Below the pieces are notes generated by a model. The model saw only the letters and a program-made list of their open reading frames with translations, searched no databases and was not told the DNA's origin. A stretch of 63,000 nucleotides of DNA, from the IMG/VR virus record IMGVR_UViG_3300042938_000809, positions 1 to 63,000 of that record. One strand, written 5' to 3'. This DNA comes from a virus. Taxonomy: Duplodnaviria > Caudoviricetes. The translations under genes and the position numbers were made by a program. Positions 4,114 to 56,130 of the stretch are shown one piece after another; positions within the stretch are counted from its first letter, which is position 1; each line of letters starts with the position of its first letter.

Positions 4114-4114
4114 A

Positions 4115-4491: not shown

Positions 4492-4963
4492 AATTATGTC
4501 TTGTTATTATTTGTTCATTACTATTTCGTACGTTAACTTTTTCAGCTTCGTAATAATTCCAGTAAGCAGTTACACTATCGCCAGGAACTTTGTATTCATC
4601 AGGCATACATTGAGGCATTGGCGTAGCACCGATGTTTAACATACCACCGGGTACATTACTTAGTACATCTTCACACTTTGTTATAGTTAAATGCTTTTTT
4701 CCATAACGTTTAGTATACTCTTCGCCAAGCGCTAACATGTGAAAGTATAACCACGCATAATTGTCAGCGGATTCACGTGCCCATATAGCTGACGGATGAT
4801 TTTTATGGGTTGGCTTGTAAGGTACATTTGCATCATCGCCATCTAATACGTGGTGTGCAGTACATAATAATTGAGCGGATTCGAGGATCATTTTTACAAC
4901 GTGTTTATTGTACATCATTGTAGCCGCTTTGTCAGGGTCTTTGTCTAAATAAAAAATGTTCAT
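4478..4963 (-). CDS. pyrimidine-dimer DNA glycosylase / endonuclease V-like protein
   Basis: MNIFYLD...KHVVKMILESAQLLCTAH...YKPTHKNHPSAIWARES..NY.WL; start set at ATG 4963 because the longer ORF overlaps a promoter and the tmRNA. Confidence 0.72.
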   Translation of the reverse strand: MNIFYLDKDPDKAATMMYNKHVVKMILESAQLLCTAHHVLDGDDANVPYKPTHKNHPSAIWARESADNYAWLYFHMLALGEEYTKRYGKKHLTITKCEDVLSNVPGGMLNIGATPMPQCMPDEYKVPGDSVTAYWNYYEAEKVNVRNSNEQIITRHNYARN

Positions 4964-5031
4964 AGTTTGTTTGTTTATTATATTATCAAAGTTAATTCGT
5001 ATCCGGACTGTAAGACCGTGTATAGCATTAG

Positions 5032-5345
5032 TGGAGGCGGGGAGATTCGAACTCCCGTCCAAACAACTTTGGTTATTACAATTTATACAGCTTATGGGGT
5101 TAACTAGTCAGTTAACGTTTCCACCACTCTGTTTAATCTAACAGAGAAATCTTTCGATGCTACGCCGCTATAAGCCCTTTGACATCTGCGTTAATCAATG
5201 AATACACTTTGCTCATGTTAGCGTTAACTTGGTCAACATCTAACGAAATTACTTGGTTGTCATTTATTAAATTCACCTTAGTTTACAGTTATCTCTCTGG
5301 CTGATTGTAATAATTAGTGGTTGCCTGTCAAATCCAGTCGCCCCC
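5032..5345 (-). ncRNA. ssrA: tmRNA (transfer-messenger RNA)
   Basis: 5' GGGGGCGACTGGATTTGACAG; 3' GGGAGTTCGAATCTCCCCGCCTCCA; acceptor stem with G3:U Ala identity pair; internal tag frame 5261-5160 ending LIAA-stop. Confidence 0.93.
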
Positions 5346-5423
5346 TGTACGGGATTTTTGTCGATCTCTCTGAAGTTACCCCGTGCCTCTTCAGTTCATT
5401 CAAGCGCTACTTGACCTCTTTCT

Positions 5424-6032
5424 TTAATGTATGATTAACCCTACTTTGTTAGTCTTGTTAAACCATTTAGTAGCATATAAATCAATCTCGCTTGTATCTA
5501 CATATCCGAACTTAAGTAGTTCAATACTATTACTGAAGATTCTTGCATGACGATCAACTTCTGTATTGATCATGTGCTTTTGTTTACCAGACATACTATA
5601 AATGATGTCGTAATTTTCAGGTAAAGTTATTTCTTTAAGCAACTCAACCATGTTGGTGTAACTGTAAAACCTAACGTCGGGATTAGCTTTAGCAATTTCA
5701 ATCCACTTTTGTAGATATTCTCTGCTGTAGTAATCGCCGGAGTCGTGAACACGCACATATTGTGGTTTTCGCTTTTGAATTTCCGCATTCATCTCAACTA
5801 TGAAATCTGATGTTTTGGTTAATTCATATCGTCTCTCGAACGCTGGTTTTACATTACTCCATGTATACGCGCTTTTTCTAGCATAACAGAACTTAATACA
5901 TTCGTCAGCCATTGGGCAAGTTAATTTTCCTGTAATTGATTTGTATGCAGGTATTCCGAAGTTGAATACTTTAAGACCTAGTACTTTACTAGTCTTTTTT
6001 AATTTTGAATTCTGTGTTAATAAGTTAGCCAT
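5424..6032 (-). CDS. GP88-like protein with a radical-SAM-like Cys cluster
   Basis: TCPMADECIKFCYA, RVHDSGD, FYSYT motifs; start set at ATG 6032 downstream of the promoter at 6051-6083. Confidence 0.7.
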   Translation of the reverse strand: MANLLTQNSKLKKTSKVLGLKVFNFGIPAYKSITGKLTCPMADECIKFCYARKSAYTWSNVKPAFERRYELTKTSDFIVEMNAEIQKRKPQYVRVHDSGDYYSREYLQKWIEIAKANPDVRFYSYTNMVELLKEITLPENYDIIYSMSGKQKHMINTEVDRHARIFSNSIELLKFGYVDTSEIDLYATKWFNKTNKVGLIIH

Positions 6033-6090
6033 AGTTGTTTTGTTTATTATATTATCAATTATTATTCGTATTCGTTTTGTAATAGTATTT

Positions 6091-6163
6091 GGGGATCCGG
6101 CAGGAATCGAACCTGCATCGCTCAAGTTATTATGAGTCATGTTGCCATTTTCACTACGTATCC
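6091..6163 (-). ncRNA. tRNA-like RNA with non-canonical anticodon arm
   Basis: Acceptor GGATACG/CGGATCC (1 mismatch), T arm GCAGG-TTCGATT-CCTGC, D loop with GG, anticodon arm CTCA-TAATAACT-TGAG (8-nt loop). Confidence 0.7.
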
Positions 6164-6262
6164 ATTTTGTAGGATATCGCTAAACCTACTATGAATGGCC
6201 TATTCATATTCACCTATTATAGTTGCATTCTAAACGAGAAACTATAGTGTACGATTTTTTTG

Positions 6263-6412
6263 AAGCAAGGGCAGGACTCGAACCTGCACCGCATCCGCAC
6301 TCCTGCGTTGATCAATTTTTTTATTAACGTGAGGATCGCTTAACCTCAGTGCAGTTTTTTTGTGTCTACCTTGAAAGAAACTTTAGATTTCTAACTATTC
6401 CACCACCTTGCT
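6263..6412 (-). ncRNA. expanded (150 nt) tRNA-Leu-like RNA
   Basis: Perfect acceptor AGCAAGG/CCTTGCT, T arm GCAGG-TTCGAGT-CCTGC, Leu-type D arm TGGTGGAAT...GGTAGACAC with an ~26-nt insert, anticodon arm replaced by a ~70-nt branched structure. Confidence 0.72.
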
Positions 6413-6436
6413 AACCGACCGGGGTCACCCCAATCC

Positions 6437-6679
6437 CTAATCCAATAATACCATATAAGCATCAGGATTTGCACGTCTAAACCAATTCAATGCTTTGACA
6501 AAGGTTTGATCTTGTTTTCCTATATACACACAACCCATAATGAAGTCATACATACTTAATTCTGCAGGTGTTAAACCTATACTTGCACCACTGAACGGGT
6601 TAGTAACAACGCCGCCGTCAGTGTATAGCATTCCGTTAAACCACTTTGGTAACGGTTGTTCTTTAGTTTCTTTTATCAT
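6437..6679 (-). CDS. hypothetical protein
   Basis: ORF track; NPFSG..L...ELSMYDFIMG...Y.VLLD resembles a pattern seen in small phage proteins (from memory). Confidence 0.7.
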   Translation of the reverse strand: MIKETKEQPLPKWFNGMLYTDGGVVTNPFSGASIGLTPAELSMYDFIMGCVYIGKQDQTFVKALNWFRRANPDAYMVLLD

Positions 6680-6681
6680 AA

Positions 6682-6909
6682 TTATAAATCAGCAGTTAGA
6701 CAAATTCTTGTATCATTGTTTTTCCCTTCAAGGGCTAAAGTATTAGCGTTCCATGTTAATATTACGCCTAAATTCTTTGCAATTTCTAATGTTTTACGGT
6801 TTAAATTACCTTGTAATTCTAATCTATTTTTCCATAAAGTTACTACATAAAATTCATCAATATCATCATAAGGCATTGCTGTTAATTTGCATAATTCGTC
6901 TGAAATCAT
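6682..6909 (-). CDS. hypothetical protein
   Basis: ORF track. Confidence 0.6.
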   Translation of the reverse strand: MISDELCKLTAMPYDDIDEFYVVTLWKNRLELQGNLNRKTLEIAKNLGVILTWNANTLALEGKNNDTRICLTADL

Positions 6910-7103
6910 TGTTTGTGTTTTTTAAGGGTTAAGTCGTCTACTGTGTTTGTTATTTCTTTTACCATTTGTTCTAAGTAAGCAACAGTAAATAAACTGCGCT
7001 TGCCTTGCTCTTCTAATTCGTTAATATCATTACTCCAATCTTTAAGTAATACTTGTAATCCTTCTTTTAAGAACCACGCTTCCTGACCATTTAATTTTCT
7101 CAT
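6906..7103 (-). CDS. hypothetical protein
   Basis: Downstream of the promoter at 7130-7162. Confidence 0.65.
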   Translation of the reverse strand: MRKLNGQEAWFLKEGLQVLLKDWSNDINELEEQGKRSLFTVAYLEQMVKEITNTVDDLTLKKHKQ

Positions 7104-7133
7104 AGTTGTTTGTTATTAGTTACATTAATATTA

Positions 7134-7415
7134 TCAATTGTTATTCGTATCCATTCTGTAGAACTGATCTAACACTAGCTTCTCAAGCTTCTCTAATAAT
7201 TCGTCATCAAGATCGTTGTCATCAAAGAGTATAGTTATTTCTTCGTCACGTTCGTATTTACCGCCACGTACAGTTAACGTACCAGTATATTCATCGCCTT
7301 CAATTGTTACTTCGCCGCCAACAAATGTTACTTCTTCAGCGTCTAAAATTACATCAAAATAATAATGGTCTACTGTTCTGCTGGAATGGTGGCTTATGTC
7401 TACTATATCTTTCAT
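7134..7415 (-). CDS. hypothetical acidic protein
   Basis: ORF track; strongly D/E-rich. Confidence 0.6.
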   Translation of the reverse strand: MKDIVDISHHSSRTVDHYYFDVILDAEEVTFVGGEVTIEGDEYTGTLTVRGGKYERDEEITILFDDNDLDDELLEKLEKLVLDQFYRMDTNNN

Positions 7416-7651
7416 TATTTTACTACTTTTATAAATTGTCCGTTTTTATCGTATAATATGTTTAATTCTAATTCGTGATCTACTTTGTCGATCATTGCGT
7501 TAATATCTTGGAATTGTAAACCTGCAGAGAATTGTTCCGCTGTTAGTTTAGAACCGGCACAGTGTATAGCATAGTCATACAAGAGTTGCGGGTTGATATT
7601 TTTGTCATTGCGCATTGCAATCCATCTACTTTTTATTGCGTCTTTTACCAT
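7415..7651 (-). CDS. hypothetical protein
   Basis: ORF track. Confidence 0.6.
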   Translation of the reverse strand: MVKDAIKSRWIAMRNDKNINPQLLYDYAIHCAGSKLTAEQFSAGLQFQDINAMIDKVDHELELNILYDKNGQFIKVVK

Positions 7652-7801
7652 AAAATAATTCTATTCTTAAATAATTATTATACACTCTAGTATATGCTTC
7701 AGTCATTTTCTCATTACTACAATACTCTACATTTTGTATTGTATTCCGCATCCACGTATTAAACTTATCAGTTTCTTTAATTGCTAATTGCTCTATAGTC
7801 A

Positions 7802-8092
7802 TTAGTATTTTTCTTTAATTTCTGTTAATGTTAGGTTATAATGATTCCATAATTTAGTTCTACTAAATGCACTCGCTTTAGCACCGTATGAAGACTTCAT
7901 TTTCGTTTTGATTTGTTTATAGTCATCGCTATTAAACTGCTTGCACTTACCGTCAGTATTTACTGCATTGATACGGTTTGCTCTATTGCGCGCTTTCTTT
8001 TCTTCAAGATATTGACACGCTTCTTTCATATTGTTCGCTATTACTATCATTAGTCTTTGATTATATAAGTTAAACCGTTTAAATTGAACCAT
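7802..8092 (-). CDS. hypothetical protein (true start probably ATG 8050)
   Basis: ORF track; upstream part overlaps the previous gene. Confidence 0.5.
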   Translation of the reverse strand: MVQFKRFNLYNQRLMIVIANNMKEACQYLEEKKARNRANRINAVNTDGKCKQFNSDDYKQIKTKMKSSYGAKASAFSRTKLWNHYNLTLTEIKEKY

Positions 8093-8241
8093 TCAGAATA
8101 TCCGTCACGATCGTTTTCTGCATCGAACTTGAAACCGAATTTTTGTGGTAGATCACCGACAAGATATGGCGTGTATAGCACACCGTTTAGTTTAATAAAA
8201 TTGTTCTTTAAAAACTTGATTGATTTTTTTTCTTTGTTCAT
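8050..8241 (-). CDS. hypothetical protein
   Basis: Downstream of the promoter at 8268-8300. Confidence 0.65.
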   Translation of the reverse strand: MNKEKKSIKFLKNNFIKLNGVLYTPYLVGDLPQKFGFKFDAENDRDGYSEWFNLNGLTYIIKD

Positions 8242-8277
8242 AGTTGTTTATTGTTGGTTACATTATTATTATCAAAT

Positions 8278-8496
8278 CTAATTCGTATTCGTTCTGTAAG
8301 GGTGTTGAGCTATTAATTCTTTCGCTATTTCATCATGAATTTCTTCGATCATTCTAAGTATGTGGTATGACTCACGTGCTTGGTGATTGTCATTACATCT
8401 TAAGGCATCAGCGAGCACATCCGTATGCTCGTCTCTTAAATGGTCAATAGCCACTTGAATTACATTAGCTTCTCGCTTTGTTATAGTTATAACCAT
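8278..8496 (-). CDS. hypothetical protein
   Basis: ORF track. Confidence 0.6.
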   Translation of the reverse strand: MVITITKREANVIQVAIDHLRDEHTDVLADALRCNDNHQARESYHILRMIEEIHDEIAKELIAQHPYRTNTN

Positions 8497-8501
8497 AGTG
8501 T

Positions 8502-8747
8502 TTAGTCGTTTAAGTATTCAGTTAAAGCATAGTTAAATGCAGCTTCTAATAAATCAAGTTCACAAATTTCGTCAATTCTTTTATTAACTAATTCACATTC
8601 AAGAGCAGTGAATATAGGCTCGTCACTTCTGTCGATCACTTCAGACGGCTCGTCTTCAAAGTGAAATAATTTATCATTCAATACTAGATTGTCGACGAAA
8701 GACTTCATATCAGCTAAAGACTTAATTTGATTGTTTAAAAACTGCAT
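8502..8747 (-). CDS. hypothetical protein
   Basis: Downstream of the promoter at 8774-8806. Confidence 0.65.
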   Translation of the reverse strand: MQFLNNQIKSLADMKSFVDNLVLNDKLFHFEDEPSEVIDRSDEPIFTALECELVNKRIDEICELDLLEAAFNYALTEYLND

Positions 8748-8810
8748 AGTTAGTTTGTTTTAGTTACATCAATATTATCAAATACAATTCGTATTCGTTT
8801 TGTAAGAGTA

Positions 8811-8972
8811 TTATATTGCCATAATGTCGGTGCAATCATAGTCCTCCCAGTCTAATACAATTTCTGCTTTTCCGTATTGTTCGCTAACAATATCAATTGC
8901 TGATTGCTCGTCAACCGCATCAATGTATAGCACTCTAGATGCCGTCTCTGTAATTCTAATTTTATATTCCAT
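8811..8972 (-). CDS. DpnD/PcfM-like small protein
   Basis: Manual translation MEYKIRITETASRVLYIDAVDEQSAIDIVSEQYGKAEIVLDWEDYDCTDIMAI; pattern resembles the DpnD/PcfM family. Confidence 0.55.
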   Translation of the reverse strand: MEYKIRITETASRVLYIDAVDEQSAIDIVSEQYGKAEIVLDWEDYDCTDIMAI

Positions 8973-9150
8973 ATTATTGTTGTTTAATTAATTTCGGTTT
9001 CCACAGTCCTATTCTATTAGACGAAAATAACTTTCCGTAGTCTTGTGAGTATCTATAATGAGCAACTTCGTTAAGTGCTTTATAGTTGTATACTTCAATA
9101 TACACACCATTGCCGTAATATTCTAATACTTTATATCCTTCTTTCATAAC

Positions 9151-9375
9151 TTAATCTTTACTTGTTGTTGTACCCTCAAAGAATGAGTGGATTGCTTTAT
9201 CTTCTGCTTCTCTAATAGCCTTGTATTTCTCAACATTAGTTATTTTTTCTAATAACCATTCTTGTATATCTTCTCTACTGTCAGAGTGATATTCTTGGTT
9301 CATCCACTTTGATCGGTACATAGCTTGTATGGTACCATTACGTAATGTTCTTGTGTATTCAACTATATCTTCCAT
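9151..9375 (-). CDS. hypothetical protein
   Basis: ORF track. Confidence 0.6.
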   Translation of the reverse strand: MEDIVEYTRTLRNGTIQAMYRSKWMNQEYHSDSREDIQEWLLEKITNVEKYKAIREAEDKAIHSFFEGTTTSKD

Positions 9376-9769
9376 ATTATCGTCTCATAGCGTAACCCGC
9401 CGCTTTGCCCGCTTCACGGAGTTCATAATTAATTCTTAGTAATATTAACTTAATTGCATCGGAAAATCTAATCTTTCTTCTCATTATATACTGTTTATTT
9501 GATTAATAGTAAGCGAATTTCTCCACATTTGTATGTATTCTTCTTCTTCAGGGTATTCAACCAAAGAACCTTTGTTATTAGAGTTCATAAATTCTTCGCC
9601 AAACATATAGGCAAAGTACTCTTTTTCAGTCATTCCATAGTAATCTTGCATAGTAGAATTAGTTTTTGTTAGTTACATTTATATTATCAAATCACTCTCG
9701 TATTCGTTTTGTAAAGGTATATAGTTTGTTTACTCATTTTTTTAGTAGAACAGGTGCTACCCACTGTAT

Positions 9770-10042
9770 CTAGATGTTCAATTGGTAAGAACAGTAAGCC
9801 CAGATTGCTTGGTTTATACGGTCAAGTTCGCATTCACCACTGAGATATACGTTAACAGCGTTGTAGAACTTAGTTAATTTAGAGTCGGCGTAGCAAAATT
9901 CTCTTTTAAACTCGTCAAGTTCTTCGCCTTGCATGAAATTTAACCCGACGATCTCGTCTTTTACTTTTATAATATAGACATAGCGGTCATCTTGGTTGCA
10001 CCACACGATCTGTTTACTCTCGACTAATTCATATTCGCTCAT
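9770..10042 (-). CDS. hypothetical protein
   Basis: Downstream of the promoter at 10068-10100. Confidence 0.65.
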   Translation of the reverse strand: MSEYELVESKQIVWCNQDDRYVYIIKVKDEIVGLNFMQGEELDEFKREFCYADSKLTKFYNAVNVYLSGECELDRINQAIWAYCSYQLNI

Positions 10043-10234
10043 AGTAGTTGTTTTTAGTTACATCATTATTATCAAACTTCATTCGTATTGGTCTTGTAAG
10101 AGTGCCCATGGAGAATAGCGTATAGCATTTTCACCGAAAATAACATAAATACTTAGTTTTTAACTAAAAAGTAGGACGGGGTCTACTCTTCCGACATTAT
10201 TTCAGTGCCAGGCCGGTGGTGTATAGCAAAAAGA

Positions 10235-10278
10235 GTGACATTAGCTGCTTATAACTACTAATAGCAGGCTAACGTCGC
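10235..10278 (+). repeat. 44-bp inverted-repeat element, copy 2
   Basis: GTGACATTAGC-N22-GCTAACGTCGC. Confidence 0.85.
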
Positions 10279-10402
10279 ACTTTTCTAATCATTATTTTTT
10301 ATTCAACTGGTTTATTTCTGATGCTATCATCCATAAAGGCCATGCTATAATAATACTTGCAATTATTGTTATCATATTATTTATTTTTAAGTTGTTTTAT
10401 CA

Positions 10403-10615
10403 TTATTTCATATCCTCATCATATACAAACTTACCAGTTTCGATCCAGTTTAGCACTTCTTCTTTGTATGCGTTTTCTACATGCAATGTTACGTCTGGAT
10501 ACTGGCTGTCGGCTTGATGTATCGTGTATTGTTCACGGCTCCGATCAGAGTTGAACCCTTCAGAGTGTATAGCACCTGTTATCAGGTACCATACAAAGAT
10601 TATTTTTGTTATCAT
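10403..10615 (-). CDS. hypothetical protein with hydrophobic N-terminus
   Basis: ORF track. Confidence 0.55.
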   Translation of the reverse strand: MITKIIFVWYLITGAIHSEGFNSDRSREQYTIHQADSQYPDVTLHVENAYKEEVLNWIETGKFVYDEDMK

Positions 10616-10781
10616 ATACTATCTTTCTTGTTCTAGTATAAATCTGATTAAGTTGCTTAGTTTAAGTTGATCTGAATAGCTCAGGATCATGAATTCAGTT
10701 GTACGTGTGTACTTGTAGCCGTGCTTAGTTGCTAATTTGTAAGCTAGATTTTGTAATTGCATAGTTATTTATTTAAGTTAG

Positions 10782-10861
10782 TAGTCTGGACAGGATTCGA
10801 ACCTGTAAGGATTTCTCCACGCGAAATCATCACGCTTGTTTACCATTTCCAACACCAAACC
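10782..10861 (-). tRNA. class-II (Leu-type body) tRNA-like gene with apparent GAT anticodon
   Basis: Acceptor GGTTTGG/CCAGACT, discriminator A, D arm TTG-GAAATGGTAAA-CAA, anticodon loop ATGATTT, variable arm GGA-GAAA-TCC, T arm ACAGG-TTCGAAT-CCTGT; own promoter motif at 10879-10911. Confidence 0.7.
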
Positions 10862-10943
10862 TTTTGTTTTACATTATTATTATCAATTGTACTTCGTATT
10901 CGTTCTGTAAGTGTATAGCATTTTTGCTTGCGCTTAAAGCGGC

Positions 10944-11297
10944 CTATGTTAGGCTCGCTTCAGCATCTTGAAATTCTTTTGAATTTTCATCAATTTCGAT
11001 CTTTTCAATCTTAGCTAGATGTCTGACATTACTTGGCATATCAGTTGATTGCGACCAGTATTGTCTTTTAATCCAACATGGCATTATACTTAGTTTAGGC
11101 AACATTACTTTTAATACTTCATCATGATTGTAAGTTACTTTCTGATTTTTGTTGTTGATGAAAGTTATTACTTGATTTCGGCCAAGCCAATTCTTTCTGA
11201 CTACAAAGTTAGCTCGTTCTATTGGCGGATATATTAAAGCCAATTCTTCAGTTGATAATTTCGCAATTGCTTGTTGTAATAATTCTTGATTGTTCAT
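10944..11297 (-). CDS. hypothetical protein
   Basis: 117 aa, downstream of the promoter at 11351-11383. Confidence 0.7.
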   Translation of the reverse strand: MNNQELLQQAIAKLSTEELALIYPPIERANFVVRKNWLGRNQVITFINNKNQKVTYNHDEVLKVMLPKLSIMPCWIKRQYWSQSTDMPSNVRHLAKIEKIEIDENSKEFQDAEASLT

Positions 11298-11388
11298 AGT
11301 TATTTAATTTAAAGTTATATTATTATTAGTTGTTTGTTATTTACATTATTATTATCAAAGTCTATTCGTATTGTTATTGTAAGAACTT

Positions 11389-11568
11389 TTAGACTATTTT
11401 ATATTTTAATAAATTTCTATCTAAAACTTTGTCTACAAATTCTAGATCTTTTGAATTTATATATAAGATATTTTTTGAAGTTCTAATTGTAAATTTTAAT
11501 TTATTTGAATTAATTAATAATTGATAAATTGATTTTTTGAAATTTTGATTGAATTGAAGTTTGATCAT
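11389..11568 (-). CDS. hypothetical protein (59 aa)
   Basis: Manual translation MIKLQFNQNFKKSIYQLLINS...; downstream of the promoter at 11595-11627. Confidence 0.5.
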   Translation of the reverse strand: MIKLQFNQNFKKSIYQLLINSNKLKFTIRTSKNILYINSKDLEFVDKVLDRNLLKYKIV

Positions 11569-11735
11569 TTGTTGTTGTTTTTAGATTCATATTTATTATC
11601 AAATACTCTTCGTGTTCAGACTGTAAAGATTTTTGCTATACGCGTTGCTATACGCAGCCACGGCTCCGCCTGCCAATTCCATCTAGTGGAGGAAAAGGAT
11701 CCCTGTTACAGGACCCAGTAGCTGGCCAGTATTAT

Positions 11736-11909
11736 TTAGCTGGCATAGGTTTCGATTATAAACTGTAGCCAGTCGATCTGATTATTATTATCGTTCAGGA
11801 CCCCGTAGCAATCTGCTATCTGATCTTCCAGATCTTCAGATAATTTTAATCTGTTATCTGATTTTAATAAATTTAATAATTCTGTTAATTCTGATTTTTT
11901 AAAATCCAT
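11736..11909 (-). CDS. hypothetical protein (57 aa)
   Basis: Manual translation MDFKKSELTELLNLLKSD...IIETYAS; downstream of the promoter at 11936-11968. Confidence 0.55.
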   Translation of the reverse strand: MDFKKSELTELLNLLKSDNRLKLSEDLEDQIADCYGVLNDNNNQIDWLQFIIETYAS

Positions 11910-12041
11910 TTTATATATATTTTATATTCAGATATATTATCAGAATCACCCCGTGCTCAGACTGTAGGGAAATGCTATACGCAAATGCTATACATTTGCT
12001 ATACACCTTCGGTGCTTGCGCACCTCCGGTTTATCGTTACG

Positions 12042-12329
12042 TTAGTTCAGAGCAGGATCGAATTCATCTGAGTCAACCCATGCCCAGTACGTAGCTCCTT
12101 GCCGAGTCCTAGACCAGTCACACATACCGTTAATCTCAGCATTAGTGTCTATGCAATGTTGCACATGCTCCTGACCGAATTGCCATCTAGACTCCTCGAT
12201 CATGTCGAGTCTCGTTTGCGGATGTAAATCATTTATTCTTTTCATGCGATATATTCGTTTAATTGTTTCAATTGTTCGTTCGTTAGGCTCGATCTCCAGG
12301 CTTGCACGTATGCTTCGTCTTCTTGACAT
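12042..12329 (-). CDS. hypothetical protein
   Basis: First ORF of the early arm, downstream of the promoter at 12383-12415. Confidence 0.6.
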   Translation of the reverse strand: MSRRRSIRASLEIEPNERTIETIKRIYRMKRINDLHPQTRLDMIEESRWQFGQEHVQHCIDTNAEINGMCDWSRTRQGATYWAWVDSDEFDPALN

Positions 12330-12415
12330 AATAATTCTAATTCTTCTTCTGACATCTTGTAGTATTTATTTGTTACATATATATTATCAAAACCACTTCG
12401 TGTTGGTGTTGTAAG

Positions 12416-13090
12416 GAAATGCTATACGCGTTGCTATACACGCTTCGCGTCGCTCCGCTCCGTTATCGTTCGTATCGTGTGGGTTACCTCACAAGTAACA
12501 TACGCACTACGGAATGCCATATAACGCACATTCGTACGCAATAACACGTATCGTAAGCACATACACGGATCATAGTGTCACGTAACGCCCATTAGCTCAC
12601 ATATCATACACATCGCAACGTATCGGCACGTATCGTATAACATGGCAGCCATCACGTACGCACCAAATCATAACATGTACACGACACCAAATCATAACCA
12701 ACACACGACACGTGGCACACGGAAACGCAGCCATGCACGTACACACACACAGGACCCCAGGAAACCCGGAAGCGTAGGCCGTAATCCGTACGGAAAAGGC
12801 AAAACATTTTCCCAAATCCCGAAAAACGCACGGGGGGTGGGGTGAAAAAATCGATTTCCCGTTTGGGGTGCGCGGCGAAAAATGCTATACATAGCCCGTT
12901 GCTTATATTTACGTAACAAAATTTTTTTTTATTTTCCCGTAACGTAAGATATAGTACACGAAACGACGTTGTTTTGTTAATTATATCATACATTATAGTG
13001 ACATTAGCTAGTTATATATAATAGTAGTAGGCTAACGTCGCTATTTTAAATTGTTAATTTACTATGTGATTATAACCTTATAAACAAACT
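12416..13090. other. non-coding divergence region (candidate genome end, origin or packaging region)
   Basis: Transcription diverges here; low-complexity CGTA/CACG/ACAC tract, direct repeat CACCAAATCATAAC x2 near 12661-12698, G-run, higher GC than flanks. Confidence 0.55.
12998..13041 (+). repeat. 44-bp inverted-repeat element, copy 3
   Basis: GTGACATTAGC-N22-GCTAACGTCGC just upstream of the late block. Confidence 0.85.
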
Positions 13091-48303: not shown

Positions 48304-51300
48304 ATGAGTAATTGGACACCACCAGAAGATGCAGTTGAAGTGAAATCATGGGCTCCACCAACAGGTGCAGTAGAGGTAAAACCAAAAAGCGTCTTGTCTG
48401 CTGAAAAAAAAGTAGCTCAAGATATAGCTAGAAATACAGCTAAAAGAAAATCACAAGGATTATCTACATATTACTCTCCAGAAAAAGTAGCTTTAAAAGT
48501 AAAGTTAGAAAATCAATCAAGAGAAAAACAAAGAGCAATTGAAGCAGGCGTTCCTGAGGTTACTCAAGAAGAACAAGAAGCTTACAAAAGGTATTCTAGT
48601 AATAACGCTGTAACTAAAGAAGATGTAGATGAAGTTAGAAATAAAGCTTTAGAAGAAAAAAGTTTTAAAACTATAGGTGATAAAAGAAGAGCAGAAAGCT
48701 TGACTTCTGTTGGAGCTGCTATTGAGAATTGGTGGGAAGGCGATGCAGATAAAGAATATGTTGCTTTTGAAGATGAAAGAAAACAGGTATTAAAAGAAGC
48801 TAAGAGAGAAGGTAAGAAATATACCGGTGCCCAAATTGAAAACTTAACTGAAAGAAAGTTCAACCAAAGACAATATAAAAAGTTAATAAACAAAAAAGCT
48901 GAACAGTATCTAAAAGATATAAGCGGTGAAGAACAAGACTTATTAGAATCCAAAGGATTAAAAGAAGTAACAATTGAAACTAAAGCATTTAACAAAAGAG
49001 CCGCTGTAAATAAAAAATTAGAGACCGATATAACTAATTATTCAAAAGCTTATGATACCCAGCTAAAAGAAATTAAAGCTTACGGCAAAGAACCTAAACT
49101 TAATTCTCAAGAAGAGGTAAACTCTTATAATGAAAAGGTGCAAAACTTAAATAGGATAGCTAAAGAACTAACGCCTATTTATTCAACATACAAGTCTAAC
49201 CTAACTGAATACGACAAGTCTAGTAAGAAATTAGGTACCGCAGAAGAGGAATACGATCTAGCTAAAAGACACTATGGCGTTGGCTGGAACCTTTTGAAAA
49301 CAGCGGATGCCTTTGAAAACTTCTTTATTGGCGCAGCTGGTTTAGCCGGAATGGCAGGTGACTTAGCTACATACGTTCCAAGAAAAGTAGCTGACTTAGT
49401 TACAGGTGATGACGAAACCGGGTTTATGACAAGCGGCACCGAGTGGTTATACAAAAGAGCCGCTCAGCGTGAAGAAGAACAAAACAAATTTTATGCAAAA
49501 GACCGAGAGGTAGAAGGCGTAGAAACATTCTTTGAAAAAGGATGGGATCTGGTAGCAACACAAATTCCAAATATAGTCTTATTTGCTGTAAGTGGCGGAA
49601 CAGGTAACGTAGCGAAAGCAGGAGCTACTGAAGTCGCTGGATCAGTGGCTAAGGCTGCTGTTGATGATATTGCTATTGTTGCAGGCAAGAAAGCCGTTGG
49701 TAGTGGTGCAAAATATTTAGAACAGTTTGCTAATACTCGTATTGGTAAAACAGTTGTTGATGCGGCTACATTAAAAGGTTTCGCATCAAAAGCAATTGCA
49801 GGTAGTTCTGCTGGTACTAAATATCTAGATCTAAATTACGAAAAAGAACGAGGCAATATTGATTATAACCCACTGCAAATGATGGGGGCATCGTTATTAT
49901 ATGGCTACGCTGAAGGTGTTGGTGAAAATGTTACAATGGATATATTCAAGGGCGCAACTAGGCCATTAAAAGCTTTAGCTGAAGATGGCGCAAAGAAAGC
50001 ATTCCTGGATACATTGAAAAAAGAAACCGTTGTGTCTTGGTTCGGCCAAAGAGGTAGAGACATGCTAAATGAAAATATCTCTGAGCAAGTTACTAATCTA
50101 GCACAAAACGGTATAGATAAATTTATGCTTGGCAAAAATGTTGGTATGTTAGATAATACTGGCACAGTGTTTAAAGATACTACTATGTTAACCGCATTAA
50201 TGATCGGTAGTCCAGCTATAGCGGGTCAAGTAATAAGACCTTTTATACCTGTGTCCGATCAATCTAAAATGAAGTCTAATAGTTCTGAAATGGCTAGGTT
50301 GATTTCAAAAATGAATGGAGCAAGTGAAATTACTCAAAAAGCATACCAAGATAAAGTAGAGGCTCTGACAAAAGAGAACTCTGAAATGACTAAAAAAACA
50401 ATAGATAGAATTGGCGGTATTCCAAATGGCACGTACAATACTATATTAGAATTAGATAAAGGAAGAAGAGATATACAGGTAAGAGCTCATGACATACTTA
50501 ATAGTAATGAAAGTGAACAAGACAAAGCCAACTCTTTAAATATATTAAAAGAGGAGTACGACGCTAAGGATAATGAGTTAGCTGTTATACAAGATAATAT
50601 AAAGTTAGTAGATAATATTAGTTCAGATTTTGACGCTGAAACTAAAGAAGATATTTACAATTCACTTGTAGAAAGAAAGGAACTTGAACAGTCTATTAAG
50701 ACTATGGATCCTATGCAAAAGCAAGATGCTTTGGAAAAAATCAAGGAGATTGACGACACATTTAAAGCGTATAAGATTAGAAGCATCGTTGAAAAAGAAA
50801 TTGTAAAAGACTTTAACAAGACATTAAAAGCAAAAGAGCAACTTGGACTTGATAAACTATTCATACCAGATATTAGTACCTCAAACAGCGCTATGGAATG
50901 GTTACAAGCTAATACAAGTCTAACTGAGGCCCAAATTGAAGAACAGTCTGGTAAATACGGGTTTTTTGTTCCAACTAGTCTAATGATAGACCCTGCAACC
51001 GGTGAAGCTTTTACAGACGGTAGAACAGCTCTTATTGTAAACAAAGAAGAGTCTGGTCTAGACGGCGTAATAACAACCGGCCAGCACGAGATGTTACACG
51101 CTTTAATTTACAATGCTGTAAAAGGTAATCCCGAATTTGCGAAAAAGATAGGTAGTGATCTATATAACTTCTTAGAAACTACTTTAGCAAAAGATGTATT
51201 AGAAGGTTCTGAATTTAAAGAAAGATATGACAGTTATAAAGATGACTTTGTAAGTGAAAAAGAATCTTTGAATAAAGCTCGCAAAGCTAAAATAGAGAGT

Positions 51301-54300
51301 GCTAAAAAAGACATTGCTAATGCTAGTGAAGCTACTATCGCTAAATTCACAAAAACAATAAATACATTTTACGATAATAAAATAAATTTAGCAGAAGCAG
51401 ACTTTTTAGAAGAAACGTTAACGTTGTTATCTGAAGCTATATCAAAAGGCGATATAAAATATAATGAAACTTTTTTCACAAAGTTAGGTGATTTAATTAG
51501 AAGAGTTTTCCAAAACTACGGTTTAAAAGTAAATTTTTCTACAGGGCAAGATGTATTCAACTTTGTAAGAGACTATAATAAAAGTTTTGAGAAAGGTAAA
51601 TTTACAGACGCTTTTAAAGCTTTAGCTGTTAAAGGCGAGTATAAACCAACTAGCAATAAGAATGCTAAAGTAGGAACTGAAAGTATCAAAGCGTCAAAAT
51701 CTTTAGAACTAAAGAACCAATTAAAAGCGTTAGAAGAAGAATACGACGATGGTCTTGGCGAAATGCAGGAAGAGGAATACTTACCAACTAAAGCAAATCT
51801 TGAATTAAAATTAAAAGCCGCGTTAAAAGCAGAAGCATCTAGCGGTGTAGTTGAAAAGCCAAAGAAAGAAGAGACAGAAGAAGATGAAGTAAAGGCAATC
51901 ATAAGAAATGAAAAAGGAACTATAGCTTCTGATAAAGTACAAAAAATATATGATGAAAAAGGCGTACAAGGAGCCAATGAAATTATAAAATTATTTAAAC
52001 CTATAACGGCAAAAATAGTTCAGAAACGTAGAGATGCTCCTGGCTTTAATGAAGAAGAGCTTACTAAAGAAATAGAACTTGGAGCAGGTGGATTATTTGA
52101 TTTAATTAGAAAATTTGAAGCTAGCAAAGGCGTTCCTTTAGCGGCTTATATTAATAAAAATCTACCTTTAAGGGCAATTACTGCATCTAGAAGGGTATTA
52201 GACAAAGAGTTTACCAGTGATGTTGAAACAGAAGTCAATGTAAAAGCAACTGAAACTGCGGATCAAAATATGACCGATAGGGTTGCTGAAAAACCAAAAT
52301 ATAAAGATGCATTAGAATCTAATCTTTTTGAACCAGAAGTACTAGAAACAGCAACAAAAAAGATAATAACTATAGTTAGGACTTTGCGTTCTAAAATAGA
52401 CGAACCAGTTACCTTAAACCGTACTGTAACTCCGTTTATAGCTGAGATTAGGGATGAGGTTGGTAAGCAACTTGATATTGATATAAAAACAATGTTAGGT
52501 GGCAAGAAAGATGGTGTACTTAGAAAAGAACTTTTAAGAACTAAACGTTATATTCTAGAAAACATGACCACCACATGGTTAATGGGTAAAGACGGGCAAG
52601 GCGGAATACCTCAAGCAATACAAAAACGTATTGATGGCAAATGGGTTAATTTCCCTGATTGGGTCGGGCAAAAAATAGATAGAGAAGCAATGTCTACCGA
52701 TTTAGCTGGAAGAACTTCTGGTGCAGAATTGGTTAGAAGATTGCCTAATGTATTTAACAATGTACCTAACGAGGATTTTTTAGCGCAAATAATCGGTCCT
52801 GATGGCAATCCAATCAGGGGTAGAAAAGAATCGGTTTCTAAAGCTATGGCTGAAGAATCAGCTATGGATATTATTAAAAATGATCTTGAAAACGACGGTC
52901 CAATATCTCAAGCTATCATAGCTAACCAAGAAAGGATTGGCGCTAAAATAACAGAATCTTTTGGAACAGAATTCGCTAGACAAGCTGAAAGAGGTAATAT
53001 AAAAAATTCTGAAAGACTTAAAAAAGGGTTTAAAGTATCTATTTCAAGATTAACAGACTCAATAATAGACGCTAAGGGTGATGTTGGATTGCAATCTATT
53101 GCTATTAAAAAATGGTTAGCATCTGACGGTAGGTCTATAAGAACCAAATCCTGGGCAATTTCAGGAAAATCTAAAGAGTTTACAACAAATGCTGCTTTGA
53201 TGCAGAAGATATTAATACCAGCGTTTAAAAGCTCATTAACAACTCCGTTTGTAATAGATAATGAAAATTACTTTCATTTAGTTGATGTTGAAAATGGCCA
53301 GACTATATATTACGGTGATGAACCTGTAAAATTATGGATGCAGATATCTGAAATAAAAGCTAACTGGGAAGACAATAAAGAAAAAGTTAGTCTGGAATCT
53401 AAATATGCTTATAGTCAAATAATAGAATTAGTAAATTGGGCTAAAAATAAAAAATTAGGTATTGAAGACTTTAAAGCTTATTTGTTTTTATTAAGTCAAG
53501 ACCAAAGAGGGCTTGTACGTAAGTTAGGTTCTCCTGGATTAGGGTTTATTGGTAAAATTGAAAACCCATACCTAGAACACAATCCTCCGCGATTTGATAT
53601 AATGGAGAGCATAGTTGATTTGTATACTGATTCAAACGGGATGACTGAGGAAAAATTAAAAGATATAATCTCAAAATCAAATGTTAACCTAATCCCCGGT
53701 AAATTAAATAAATTATTACCTAAGTATAAAAAAGGCGATAATAGAATGGAGGACCCTAAAGTTTTGCTATACATATCCAAAGCTCTTGAGTCTGGCCAAT
53801 TGATCACAGGTATCGAGTCTGAGTATGGTTCAATAGAAAGATTTGAAGCGCTGGTAAAAGAAGCAAAAACACCTACTGAATTACAAGAGGACACAGACGG
53901 TACAGCTAGAATTAAATCCAGTAAAAAATTAAGTGAAGACTTTAATAAAATAATAGAGGTGAACACCGGGATGGAAAACTTTAAAGTGTTTTCTGACATC
54001 GTTGCAAAAAGAAGAGGTGCTGGTATTGGAAAATATAGATTTTTCCTACCGCCATCAGCCGAAGATTTTACAGGTTTATTATATGACTTTTTAGGAAAAG
54101 GTAAAGCGGGAGAAGAACAGTTTGCATTCTTTAAAAAGAACTTAATAGACCCATACGTAAAAGGTACTGCCTTAATTGATTCAGCTAGACAATCTATAAA
54201 AAGAGATTACAAAGCATTGTTAGCGGCTTTCCCCGAGGTTAGAAAGAAATTAGGCAAAAAAATACCAAGTGGAGATTTTACTTATGACCAAGCAATTAGA

Positions 54301-56130
54301 GTTTCTATATGGGAAGATGCTGGACTAGAAGTTCCTGGATTGTCAAGAAGAGACACTGTTAAACTTAATGAGTTAGTAGCTAACGATCCTGAATTAAGTA
54401 CATTCAAAGCTAACCTAATTGTTACAGGAAGACAAGGCAATGGCTGGGTTGCTCCTGCAGAGTTTTGGGATGCCAACACAATAATATCTGACTTACACAA
54501 TATAACAGAAAAAGTAGGTAGAAAAAAATTCTTAGAAGAGTTTATTGAGAATGTTAATGAAATATTCTCTAAAGATAATTTGAATAAGATAGAAGCTATA
54601 TACGGATCTAATTTTAGAGAATCATTAGAAGACTCTATATACAGAATGTCTAATGGTACAAACAGAACATCTGGATCTAATAGATTAACTAACCAATGGA
54701 ATAACTGGGTTAATAATTCTACGGGGGCTATAATGTTCTTCAATACTAGATCTGCATTATTACAGGTAATATCAGGTATAAACTTTATTAACTGGAGTGA
54801 TAATAATCCAGCATCAGCAGCGTTGGCATTTGCTAATCAAAAACAATATTGGAAAGACTTTGCCTATATATTCAACTCTGACAAAATGAAAGAGAGAAGA
54901 TCAGGGCTTAAAGAGGATGTGAGCGCAGCTGAAATCGCAAACGCGGCTGAGGGTAGTAAAAATAAAGTTGGCGCAGTATTATCTTATTTATTGAAGATAG
55001 GTTTTACACCTACTCAAATAGCGGATAGTTTTGCAATATCAGCTGGTGGATCAACGTTTTATAGAAATAGAGTAAAGACTTATATTAAAAACGGTTTATC
55101 AGAAACTGAAGCAGAAGCTGAAGCATGGAAAGACTTTTCTAAAACAGCAGATGAAAACCAACAGTCTAGTGATCCTATGTTGATCTCTCAACAACAGACT
55201 AGCTCTATAGGTAGATTAATACTAGCTTTCCAGAATACGCCTATGCAGTATAACCGTTTAATGAAAAAAGCAGCTAGAGACCTTATCAATAGAAGAGGTA
55301 ATCCAAGCGAGCACATTTCAAAGATATTATATTACGGAGCGGTTCAAAGTTTTATTTTCAATGCTTTACAATCTGCATTGTTCGCGGTTGCTTTTACTGG
55401 AGGAGATGACGAAGAGAAAGATAAAGAAATAAACAAAAAGTCTGCAGACATAATTGATGGCATGATAGATGGTATCATAAGAGGCTCTGGATTAGGTGGG
55501 GCTATCGTTGTAACATTAAAGAATGCAATACAGAAATATCAAGAAGAGTCTGAGAAAGGATTTAAAGGAGACAATGCAAAAGTTTTATTACAATTACTCA
55601 ACATATCCCCCGCAATCGGTTCTAAAGCTAGCAAGATATATGGATCAATGCAAACAGCTATCTTTGAAAAAGATGTTATAAAAGAAATGGGGTGGAGTGT
55701 TACAAGAGATGGCAAATTAAATGTCAGTCCAGTATATGAAGCAACAGGAGCTCTTGTGGAAGGTACAACGAATATACCAATGAGTAGGCTAGTTTCTAAA
55801 GTTGAGAACATGTCGGAAGCCTTAGACTCTAGGAATGCAACTTGGCAAAGAGTAGCTTCTGCATTAGGATGGAAACCTTACGCTATAGGAGTGCATAACG
55901 AAGAACAAGACTTAATAAAAGCCGGTGCTAAAGTTAGGAAAAAAGCAGAGGGTGTAGAAAAAGCAAAAATAACTAGATTAGAAAACAAACTTAAAGAGCT
56001 TGATATGTTATCTAATATGACTACAGAAGAATATGATAATTATCTCAATATAAAGAAACTTGAGAGAAGATTAAAATATTTAGATAAGAAAATCAAGGAT
56101 GAAGAAACAAGGAAGATGTTAGGTAAATAA
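48304..56130 (+). CDS. giant internal virion / polyvalent protein (zincin HExxH, sigma region-2-like, nuclease-like and helical domains)
   Basis: 2608 aa, last gene of the virion block; HEMLH at aa 928-932; sigma-2-like segment at about aa 1220-1295. Confidence 0.7.
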   Translation: MSNWTPPEDAVEVKSWAPPTGAVEVKPKSVLSAEKKVAQDIARNTAKRKSQGLSTYYSPEKVALKVKLENQSREKQRAIEAGVPEVTQEEQEAYKRYSSNNAVTKEDVDEVRNKALEEKSFKTIGDKRRAESLTSVGAAIENWWEGDADKEYVAFEDERKQVLKEAKREGKKYTGAQIENLTERKFNQRQYKKLINKKAEQYLKDISGEEQDLLESKGLKEVTIETKAFNKRAAVNKKLETDITNYSKAYDTQLKEIKAYGKEPKLNSQEEVNSYNEKVQNLNRIAKELTPIYSTYKSNLTEYDKSSKKLGTAEEEYDLAKRHYGVGWNLLKTADAFENFFIGAAGLAGMAGDLATYVPRKVADLVTGDDETGFMTSGTEWLYKRAAQREEEQNKFYAKDREVEGVETFFEKGWDLVATQIPNIVLFAVSGGTGNVAKAGATEVAGSVAKAAVDDIAIVAGKKAVGSGAKYLEQFANTRIGKTVVDAATLKGFASKAIAGSSAGTKYLDLNYEKERGNIDYNPLQMMGASLLYGYAEGVGENVTMDIFKGATRPLKALAEDGAKKAFLDTLKKETVVSWFGQRGRDMLNENISEQVTNLAQNGIDKFMLGKNVGMLDNTGTVFKDTTMLTALMIGSPAIAGQVIRPFIPVSDQSKMKSNSSEMARLISKMNGASEITQKAYQDKVEALTKENSEMTKKTIDRIGGIPNGTYNTILELDKGRRDIQVRAHDILNSNESEQDKANSLNILKEEYDAKDNELAVIQDNIKLVDNISSDFDAETKEDIYNSLVERKELEQSIKTMDPMQKQDALEKIKEIDDTFKAYKIRSIVEKEIVKDFNKTLKAKEQLGLDKLFIPDISTSNSAMEWLQANTSLTEAQIEEQSGKYGFFVPTSLMIDPATGEAFTDGRTALIVNKEESGLDGVITTGQHEMLHALIYNAVKGNPEFAKKIGSDLYNFLETTLAKDVLEGSEFKERYDSYKDDFVSEKESLNKARKAKIESAKKDIANASEATIAKFTKTINTFYDNKINLAEADFLEETLTLLSEAISKGDIKYNETFFTKLGDLIRRVFQNYGLKVNFSTGQDVFNFVRDYNKSFEKGKFTDAFKALAVKGEYKPTSNKNAKVGTESIKASKSLELKNQLKALEEEYDDGLGEMQEEEYLPTKANLELKLKAALKAEASSGVVEKPKKEETEEDEVKAIIRNEKGTIASDKVQKIYDEKGVQGANEIIKLFKPITAKIVQKRRDAPGFNEEELTKEIELGAGGLFDLIRKFEASKGVPLAAYINKNLPLRAITASRRVLDKEFTSDVETEVNVKATETADQNMTDRVAEKPKYKDALESNLFEPEVLETATKKIITIVRTLRSKIDEPVTLNRTVTPFIAEIRDEVGKQLDIDIKTMLGGKKDGVLRKELLRTKRYILENMTTTWLMGKDGQGGIPQAIQKRIDGKWVNFPDWVGQKIDREAMSTDLAGRTSGAELVRRLPNVFNNVPNEDFLAQIIGPDGNPIRGRKESVSKAMAEESAMDIIKNDLENDGPISQAIIANQERIGAKITESFGTEFARQAERGNIKNSERLKKGFKVSISRLTDSIIDAKGDVGLQSIAIKKWLASDGRSIRTKSWAISGKSKEFTTNAALMQKILIPAFKSSLTTPFVIDNENYFHLVDVENGQTIYYGDEPVKLWMQISEIKANWEDNKEKVSLESKYAYSQIIELVNWAKNKKLGIEDFKAYLFLLSQDQRGLVRKLGSPGLGFIGKIENPYLEHNPPRFDIMESIVDLYTDSNGMTEEKLKDIISKSNVNLIPGKLNKLLPKYKKGDNRMEDPKVLLYISKALESGQLITGIESEYGSIERFEALVKEAKTPTELQEDTDGTARIKSSKKLSEDFNKIIEVNTGMENFKVFSDIVAKRRGAGIGKYRFFLPPSAEDFTGLLYDFLGKGKAGEEQFAFFKKNLIDPYVKGTALIDSARQSIKRDYKALLAAFPEVRKKLGKKIPSGDFTYDQAIRVSIWEDAGLEVPGLSRRDTVKLNELVANDPELSTFKANLIVTGRQGNGWVAPAEFWDANTIISDLHNITEKVGRKKFLEEFIENVNEIFSKDNLNKIEAIYGSNFRESLEDSIYRMSNGTNRTSGSNRLTNQWNNWVNNSTGAIMFFNTRSALLQVISGINFINWSDNNPASAALAFANQKQYWKDFAYIFNSDKMKERRSGLKEDVSAAEIANAAEGSKNKVGAVLSYLLKIGFTPTQIADSFAISAGGSTFYRNRVKTYIKNGLSETEAEAEAWKDFSKTADENQQSSDPMLISQQQTSSIGRLILAFQNTPMQYNRLMKKAARDLINRRGNPSEHISKILYYGAVQSFIFNALQSALFAVAFTGGDDEEKDKEINKKSADIIDGMIDGIIRGSGLGGAIVVTLKNAIQKYQEESEKGFKGDNAKVLLQLLNISPAIGSKASKIYGSMQTAIFEKDVIKEMGWSVTRDGKLNVSPVYEATGALVEGTTNIPMSRLVSKVENMSEALDSRNATWQRVASALGWKPYAIGVHNEEQDLIKAGAKVRKKAEGVEKAKITRLENKLKELDMLSNMTTEEYDNYLNIKKLERRLKYLDKKIKDEETRKMLGK

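Follow-up and report, generated by a model that had tools for sequence, protein, structure and literature searches.

What fires the 13 conserved promoters that precede a phage's own sigma-factor gene is the concrete question raised by the IMG/VR virus record IMGVR_UViG_3300042938_000809, which was analyzed here in its entirety as the window (63,000 bases, 35% G+C, estimated 98% complete). The uncultured phage is a podovirus of the Flavobacteriia type and a distant relative of crAss-like phages. Because its sigma gene lies behind its presumptive promoters, something else must fire them first. A candidate was found in the last gene of the structural module, which encodes a giant, polyprotein-like protein of 2608 amino acids (aa) that is presumed to be a virion component from its size, its position after a muzzle-like gene and the giant structural proteins found at the same place in relatives. 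Based on structure prediction, aa 1192-1305 of this protein probably form a genuine fold of the sigma-70 domain 2 type (Table 1).

The AlphaFold2 (AF2) model of aa 1185-1309, obtained from a 66-row alignment with no templates, was predicted with high confidence (predicted local distance difference test [pLDDT] 87.8, predicted template-modeling score [pTM] 0.79), with helices at residues 8-22, 25-46, 48-57, 66-75, 80-86 and 95-121 of the model. Using Foldseek against the Protein Data Bank (PDB), sigma-factor entries occupied 48 of the 49 rows listed for this model, the remaining one being a cyclophilin, with probabilities of up to 0.98 and template-modeling (TM) scores of 0.44-0.52 by query and 0.54-0.65 for chains made of sigma domain 2 only. 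Examples included the RpoS region 1.2+2 fragment (probability 0.96, TMt 0.54, 86 columns) and the SigE N-domain (TMt 0.65, root-mean-square deviation 2.9, 74 columns). A longer model of 561 aa (aa 1040-1600; pLDDT 74) comprised a confident helical domain at aa 1192-1299, followed by a disordered linker and then by a domain with a pLDDT of about 90. With this model, sigma chains accounted for 36 of the 49 listed PDB rows, and phage sigma factors were found at ranks 2, 7, 21, 30 and 36 in BFVD. At the level of language-model features, PF04542 (Sigma70_r2) was carried by 26 of the 30 nearest named ESM-Atlas clusters (score 0.96, recognition 3086), in a calibration where about one in 100 shuffled proteins obtained a first hit of at least 0.95 and one third obtained ten concordant hits. 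Overall, the helices of regions 1.2, 2.1, 2.2 and 2.3-2.4 were recovered at the AF2 and Foldseek level, although every E-value was at least 0.21. The initial annotation had described a domain resembling regions 2.1-2.4 of sigma70 and had named a Foldseek search as one of its checks; a sigma-2 fold was predicted and the search was dominated by sigma entries, so the claim holds for the fold (AF2, Foldseek and Atlas), while sequence profiles were negative and profile alignment with hhalign was marginal.

The amino acid sequence was nevertheless consistent in its register. Translation of nucleotides (nt) 51961-52200 on the plus strand gave GVQGANEIIKLFKPITAKIVQKRRDAPGFNEEELTKEIELGAGGLFDLIRKFEASKGVPLAAYINKNLPLRAITASRRVL, in which 'ANEIIKLFKP' begins at aa 1224 of the 2608-aa open reading frame (ORF); the sigma-like residues quoted in the initial annotation for aa ~1220-1295 are exactly present and correspond to aa 1224-1295. 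The segment KEIELGAGGL...RKFEASKG.PLAAY lined up with DLIQxGxIGL...DK, the signature of region 2.2 in the sigma factor that the phage itself encodes, and the consensus of the window's subfamily at this region-2.2-like site was DEIETGxGGIL. Divergent subfamilies retained the pattern (K/E)FDPxK..L..YI...L..R...AL, typical of regions 2.2-2.4. When the alignment of the sigma-like domain (A2) was compared by hhalign with a close sigma alignment (A3; P 0.071) and with an alignment of 29 diverse phage sigmas (A5; P 0.053), residues ~45-112 of the 125-aa piece were placed on sigma regions 2.1-2.4 in both runs, as expected. Inspected by eye in this register, regions 2.3 and 2.4 kept one tyrosine (AAY), had K and N at the two tryptophan positions, and were followed by a basic RAITASRR helix. 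In addition, two of ten fragmentary family members had sub-threshold Pfam matches to Sigma70_r2/ECF (E 0.05-0.18, 12.1-12.7 bits, profile positions 17-69); the domain does not reach the Pfam gathering score of Sigma70_r2 (24 bits).

Contact with RNA polymerase was addressed by the complex prediction with Flavobacterium RpoC that the initial annotation had also proposed. Using ESMFold2, the sigma-like domain (alignment A2) was paired with residues 200-360 of RPOC_FLAJ1, the RpoC (beta-prime) of Flavobacterium johnsoniae, which serves as a stand-in for that of an inferred host. The complex scored 0.32 (runs 0.32, 0.38 and 0.28) against 0.00 for the best of three controls, which is classed as 'weak support'; the runs shared at least 57% of contacts and the partner pLDDT was at least 65. 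In the calibration of this method, 58 of 80 solved complexes attained the mark, as did 2 of 110 mismatched pairs; scores of 0.60 or less included only 7 of the 80 solved complexes and both of the passing mismatches. As sigma and beta-prime form a solved textbook pair, the docking pass may reflect likeness rather than binding.

The giant protein was also inspected for a polymerase of its own. In agreement with the initial annotation, which had seen no virion RNA polymerase motif, there was no D.D.D in the giant protein and no D-hydrophobic-D-x-D in the six-frame open frames of the whole record over about 150 codons (stop to stop). Neither the DFDxD motif nor the similarity to phi14:2 gp66 expected of a crAss-like two-barrel virion polymerase was found. 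A single-subunit polymerase of the T7/N4 type had no Pfam match on the giant protein and was absent from the 49 Foldseek rows for aa 1040-1600. A 'DLAGR' string at about aa 1466 was without supporting polymerase motifs.

The promoters in question are copies of a motif of about 45 nt. A position weight matrix (PWM) scan of both strands placed all 13 on the minus strand between 12420 and 3007 and none elsewhere (starts at 12420, 11973, 11632, 11388, 10916, 10105, 9720, 8811, 8305, 7167, 6088, 5019 and 3077), each preceding an ATG by about 20-30 nt and most of them standing directly before a small ORF. The motif core TGATAATA(T) resembles an extended -10 element of the E. coli type, and the conserved 9-bp core TTGATAATA(T) reads like one (TGnTAnAAT), a type of element for which region 2/3.0 by itself suffices. 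A conserved block, ATgtAAc, follows TAATAt by about 5-7 nt and may mark the start site. The 13 copies do not fit the Bacteroidetes consensus TTG...TAnnTTTG, and a scan for the Bacteroidetes-type TTG-N17-21-TAnnTTTG returned 2 forward and 8 reverse matches (shuffle mean 2.5), none of them upstream of a gene. No clear late-promoter motif was visible by eye in the intergenic regions. Downstream of the final promoter copy (3077), the last gene of the arm is a genuine sigma factor of 254 aa, with weak Pfam r2/r4 matches and 254-aa homologues that are 74-98% identical. Both elements had been anticipated in the initial annotation, as 13 non-host-like promoters on the early arm and a separate sigma gene at its distal end.

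The same elements were then followed in five related records (96-100% complete) using the motif core ACGAA-N6-YTGATAATA with up to 2 mismatches. The core occurred 14, 14, 16, 10 and 6 times on one strand and 1, 2, 1, 0 and 1 times on the opposite strand (0-4 times for a reversed control), so that the promoter motif was strand-biased in 5/5 records. The stand-alone sigma factor was present in all five (94, 71, 71, 74 and 66% identity), and the sigma-like domain, the stand-alone sigma and the promoter array occurred together in 5/5 records of the window's clade. In the outgroups Elemovirus and MW202828.1, neither the sigma-like domain nor the stand-alone sigma was detected, by searches of a kind that cannot prove absence.

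The best account of these data as a whole, proposed tentatively and falling short of probable, is that the sigma-2-like domain engages the host polymerase at DNA entry from within a packaged and ejected giant protein and helps the first transcription of the early arm, the 254-aa sigma being the main promoter reader. The giant protein would be packaged and ejected with the DNA, as are crAss-like giants at the same genome position, and its hydrophobic parts would stay with the ejection channel. The sigma-2-like domain could then capture host RNA polymerase via the beta-prime clamp helices at the DNA entry point, so that transcription of the promoter-rich arm would begin before the phage's own sigma exists, and the stand-alone sigma would subsequently take over as the long-term reader of the 13 promoters. 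Packaging, ejection and polymerase binding are suggested here by crAss-like synteny, by the bootstrapping problem and by the weak docking pass.

A number of results weigh against this account. Foldseek E-values against the PDB were 0.2-1.7 for the domain model (best 0.21), and none was at or below 0.001 in either PDB search; as none fell under 0.2, the case for the fold is made by the TM-scores and by how uniform the hit lists are, not by E-values. At the sequence level, no Sigma70 family was returned by Pfam at E<=10 for the whole giant protein, for aa 1128-1569 or for a 120-aa piece, and Sigma70_r2 was absent from the best 25 of 95 families when 66 family members were scanned with Pfam. PHROGs and NCBIfam gave nothing relevant on the giant protein and its pieces, and a family-profile hmmsearch of PDB sequences returned coiled-coil noise only. 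Hidden Markov models (HMMs) were built for regions 2, 3 and 4 from the sigma family of the phage itself; among 307 six-frame ORFs they matched the true sigma only, and on the giant protein their best stretches lay elsewhere than in the sigma-like segment and had negative scores. The hhalign probability was about 1% with A3 and A5 alike and non-significant. Region 2.3 tryptophans melt the -10 element in E. coli sigma-70, and tryptophans of this type are missing from the sigma-like domain. A sigma-3 or sigma-4 part was not found either, with no Sigma70_r4 or Sigma70_r3 Pfam match at E<=10 and region 3 and 4 HMMs matching only the real sigma; hhalign of A4 (the alignment of the adjacent domain) and of A1 against A5 gave nothing consistent with sigma region 3 or 4. 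At the sequence level, these searches of the giant protein detected no region 4 helix-turn-helix, with which a complete sigma factor meets the -35 element and the flap. A 'sigma-3-like' stretch at aa ~1365-1400 (hhalign of A4 against A3, P 0.15) was dropped, as the deeper sigma alignment A5 gave a different and meaningless match, and 15 profile matches considered as small stand-alone relatives of the sigma-like domain were apparently fragments of giant genes. Concerning delivery, gp65-67 of phi14:2 had no similarity to the window's giant protein by BLASTP and HMM, and virion presence and ejection are argued from synteny only, that is, from the gene order and annotations of relatives.

Conservation across the relatives weighs in the same direction. 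In the same five lineages, the sigma-like domain was 70, 24, 29, 26 and 15% identical to that of the window, and the adjacent domain kept 74, 66, 60, 55 and 49%; the sigma-like domain therefore evolves much faster. Family-wide, only its hydrophobic core positions were conserved, and the region-2.2-like signature (DEIExGxGG) was confined to the window's subfamily and absent from the other subfamilies, which is unexpected for a surface that binds the highly conserved clamp helices. Each subfamily was internally conserved, and the putative DNA-facing helix varied. The fold is thus kept but its surfaces change, and the promoter and the free sigma stay constant, which argues against the domain as a base-specific promoter reader. 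The stand-alone 254-aa sigma is the more likely long-term, main reader of the 13 promoters. For the module redirecting host RNA polymerase that was put forward in the initial annotation, the sigma-2-like fold, the place in the last giant gene and the 13-promoter arm ending in a sigma gene all stood, and its promoter-reading part is opposed by the low conservation of the domain relative to the promoters and the sigma.

These comparisons bear directly on the explanation that the ejected module is a minimal, region-2-only sigma that itself gives promoter specificity at the 13 early promoters, replacing the crAss-like virion polymerase. It would suit the extended -10-like core TTGATAATA(T), readable by region 2/3.0 alone, the unlikeness of the motif to the host-type consensus, the place of the sigma gene behind these same promoters, the lack of a polymerase motif in the record, and the joint presence of domain, sigma and array in the five clade records with neither domain nor sigma in the two outgroups. 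However, the outgroup negatives come from searches unable to prove absence, the promoter core is conserved in five lineages when the domain is 15-29% identical in four of them with a variable DNA-facing helix, conservation of the motif is paralleled by that of the stand-alone sigma, and no -35-reading part was detected, which leaves this explanation quite improbable. The same changing surfaces would be expected if the sigma-2 fold had been kept for a non-transcriptional use with no RNA polymerase contact, as a packing or spacer module or as a site for another partner (the phage DNA end, the portal/muzzle lumen or a host defense protein). Conservation of core hydrophobics alone across the family, surface signatures that differ between subfamilies, strong conservation in the neighboring domains rather than in the sigma-like one, and the weak docking pass all fit such an exapted fold; against it, the fold occurs almost only in sigma factors among the listed matches (48/49 Foldseek rows, 26/30 Atlas clusters), the window's large subfamily keeps the region-2.2-like signature, and the phage invests in sigma-based transcription. 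This use is possible, if doubtful.

A generic helical bundle drawn to sigma by AF2 and the language model, with a motif match arising by chance and no homology at all, would account for the negative HMM-level tests, the hhalign probability of about 1% and the Foldseek E-values of 0.2-1.7, and shuffled proteins do sometimes score at least 0.95 or obtain ten concordant hits in the Atlas. Yet fold searches of PDB and BFVD, language-model features and hhalign converge on one family and one register, model confidence was high with a 66-row alignment and no templates, divergent subfamilies keep the region 2.2-2.4 pattern, and the weak Sigma70_r2/ECF matches of two divergent fragments fall at the right profile positions, so that an origin by chance or artifact was considered unlikely. 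Finally, the giant protein, or a fragment released by its HExxH motif, might act late in the producing cell as a sigma-like or anti-sigma factor and not be delivered by the virion. The gene is co-oriented and contiguous with the late structural genes, and HExxH could release fragments; its size, its place behind the muzzle-like gene and the occurrence of giant structural proteins at this place in relatives point instead to a virion component, and as the product of the last gene of the late operon such a factor would arrive after the operon was already transcribed. Late intracellular action is hardly to be expected.

Table 1. Coordinates of the features discussed, in positions of the 63,000-base window.
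Feature	Coordinates	Strand	Evidence
Stand-alone phage sigma factor gene, 253/254 residues in the window, last gene of the promoter-rich arm	2..760	-	phrog_351 E 1.5e-18; TIGR02937 E 3.8e-11, at cut-off
13 copies of a ~45-nt promoter-like motif, cTTACAaaAcgAAtACGAAnnnnatTTGATAATAntaATgtAAc	3007..12420	-	Repeat families; PWM scan of both strands
Giant ORF, 2608 aa, presumed virion cargo/ejection protein	48304..56130	+	ORF list and translation; presumed role synteny-based
HEMLH (HExxH) motif, aa 928-932, candidate zincin-type protease site	51085..51099	+	Regex match
Sigma-70 domain-2-like helical domain, aa 1192-1305, six predicted helices	51877..52218	+	AF2, Foldseek, Atlas
Linker after the sigma-like domain, aa 1302-1329, predicted disordered, acidic, variable	52207..52290	+	pLDDT <50 at residues 263-290 of the 561-aa model; length varies in alignment
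Most conserved domain, aa 1335-1579, rich in invariant K/R/G	52306..53040	+	Alignment A4; pLDDT about 86-92
Second conserved block, aa 1850-2560	53851..55983	+	Conservation profile; alignment A6

The family was sampled with aa 1150-1600 of the giant protein, which matched 1061 clusters at 90% identity (E<=0.001, among 7997 scored candidates). The best 120 of these 1061 clusters were giant proteins of 1673-3532 aa, 61-100% identical, many of them on contigs of 45-76 kb. Among viral contigs, 115 stretches encoded a relative, of which 80 loci were kept; removal from the alignments of 11 rows with duplicate segments, of L039 (no alignment in range) and of the short L026, L042 and L073 left 65 loci plus the window. 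Mapped on the window's protein, the 80 loci defined two conserved blocks, at aa ~1050-1560 (peak at 1350-1550) and aa ~1850-2550, and the N-terminal 1000 residues were poorly conserved across them. As this sample was selected with aa 1150-1600, the first conserved block is favored by construction. No match was obtained when three parts of the giant protein were searched by tblastn against 50,697 phage records. Three rows of sequencing runs from two studies (one recorded as RNA, two of guessed type) shared only 0.06 of the words and provide no evidence of expression or habitat.

Downstream of the sigma-like domain and its linker, the most conserved domain of the protein had a mean column identity of 66% and 46 invariant columns, often with K, R or G (A4, 66 sequences), with no PDB sequence relative by profile search and no named Atlas family (features for aa 1340-1579). 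The second conserved block had a mean column identity of 63% (A6, 41 sequences) and likewise no match in a profile search of PDB sequences. Moderately hydrophobic segments were located by hydropathy at aa 340, 626, 2346-2364 and 2387-2405, the last two inside this second block. For the HEMLH region, no Pfam or NCBIfam family was found on the giant protein. DUF6934, precomputed for a few giant homologues, has a C-terminal location and was uninformative.

The giant ORF is the final gene of the plus-strand structural module, starting 4 nt past the end of the preceding ORF, and is followed on its 3' side by convergent nucleotide-metabolism genes. The plus-strand block also encodes a GroEL-like chaperonin, tail-fiber-like proteins, the large terminase, the portal, the capsid protein and a 1954-aa protein. 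The module is distantly crAss-like, with a weak match of the capsid protein to Crass_capsid (E 5e-4) and a crAss_MUZ_C match in the C-terminal domain of the 1954-aa protein (E 3e-6). By terminase, the nearest cultured phages infect Flavobacterium (Elemovirus, 45% identity), Cellulophaga, Tenacibaculum and Maribacter, and the terminase of the uncultured MW202828.1 (60.9 kb) is 63% identical to that of the window. The GroEL-type chaperonin lies at 14068-15660 (+; Cpn60_TCP1 E 5e-53, phrog_5725 E 4e-134), and a GroES co-chaperonin is annotated immediately before the terminase in the Elemovirus record. Between the muzzle-like gene and the giant gene, a 1014-aa protein (43166-46210, +) resembled arabinanases only weakly (E 8.9e-7, 27.8 bits, far under the cut-off). 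The 616-aa protein encoded at 22440-24290 (+) carried a Fib_succ_major domain (E 5.6e-26).

On the minus strand, ARAGORN called a tRNA-Ile (10781-10861), a tRNA with a four-base anticodon (ataa; 6091-6163) and a tmRNA-like gene (5031-5345) whose tag peptide is unusually long; it made no gene call at a further repeat, resembling a tRNA 3' arm, at 6270-6292. An imperfect palindrome, GACATTAGC...GCTAACGTC, with a run of T after it, occurs three times (2226-2273, 10237-10302 and 12997-13065), once in the divergent region between the arms, and its copies may be terminators or regulatory hairpins. A small ORF with its upstream AGAACTATTAGAAATTTATAAAAAA stretch is tandemly duplicated at 1168-1610 (-), just upstream of a KTSC-domain gene and the sigma gene. 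The ends of the record cut the sigma gene at its last codon and a primase-helicase gene whose 5' part is missing (61942-63000, -; phrog_239 E 8.5e-60). As both ends cut genes, the contig breaks within the leftward arm, and its ends need not be those of the genome.

Two ways in which phages start transcription are known: some rely on the host holoenzyme as it is, and others (N4, crAss-like and jumbo phages) carry a polymerase in the particle. A polymerase-binding domain of the sigma type within a protein presumed to be ejected would stand between the two and would give the sigma fold a new architecture. Carried further, the data could mean that this clade replaced the injected polymerase of crAss-like phages by an injected 'starter sigma', in which a region-2-only module would seize the host core at DNA entry and fire the early promoters, which in turn express the full phage sigma. 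The probability of this conjecture is low; if true, it would add a third early-transcription strategy to the host holoenzyme and the whole delivered polymerase. A limited literature search yielded no account of virion or ejection proteins with a sigma-like domain, which leaves absence unproven. The proposed mechanism is plausible and would place a sigma domain in a new architectural, possibly delivery, context; as the nearest cultured kin infect Flavobacterium, Cellulophaga, Tenacibaculum and Maribacter, the question bears on host takeover by common aquatic phages. Even with polymerase contact lost, the protein would clearly exemplify the exaptation of a sigma domain by a virion protein.

Compared with known systems, the domain shares with Sigma70_r2 (PF04542) its predicted fold and helix order and a KF(E/D)..(K)G..L..Y stretch in the right register. 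Sigma70 factors are free proteins of 20-70 kDa, whereas the window's domain lies inside a 2608-aa protein of the structural module and below all HMM thresholds. In phi14:2, the last structural genes encode virion proteins verified by mass spectrometry, including an ejected polymerase that serves early transcription, and gp65 has a zincin-like domain, according to the record annotation for the former and to the corresponding preprint for both (bioRxiv 10.1101/2020.03.07.982082). The gp65-67 block and the window both have giant proteins at the end of the structural module, with HExxH in each. The two differ in that gp66 is a two-barrel polymerase, whereas the window's giant protein has no DFDxD/DxDxD and a sigma-like domain instead.

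Closer in gene order are Elemovirus (vB_FspP_elemo) and MW202828.1, which share the succession of terminase, portal, capsid, muzzle-like gene and giant last gene, the latter encoding 3694 aa in Elemovirus, annotated as 'structural protein', and 3859 aa in MW202828.1. A weak N-terminal similarity to the window's giant protein was seen in a single pairwise comparison (aa 497-678, E 3e-5), and HMMs of A2, A4, A6 and A5 gave no meaningful match on these two giants, so that neither the sigma-like domain nor the domain of A4 nor the block of A6 was detected. In the Elemovirus giant (L081, 18719-29800), a YDIDSD string at aa ~2167 fits the DxDxD pattern and an HEIFH motif is also present; a DUF3293 assignment in this protein was uninformative. 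By BLASTP and HMM, phi14:2 gp65-67 matched nothing in the Elemovirus and MW202828.1 giants, including gp66 against the YDIDSD-bearing protein.

Among better-known phages, T4 Alt is a virion-delivered ADP-ribosyltransferase that modifies host transcription, and T7 gp15 and gp16 are channel proteins in a system of polymerase-driven genome entry. They offer precedents, neither with a sigma fold, for ejected proteins that act on the host polymerase and for a polymerase that pulls the genome in. T4 gp55 is a minimal sigma with no more than a region-2-like part: it contacts the clamp helices, recognizes one extended -10-like element and acts as a free 185-aa late protein needing co-activators. It offers a working model for the domain described here, and the 9-bp core TTGATAATA would suit such a reader; unlike the free T4 protein, the window's domain sits inside a presumed virion protein.

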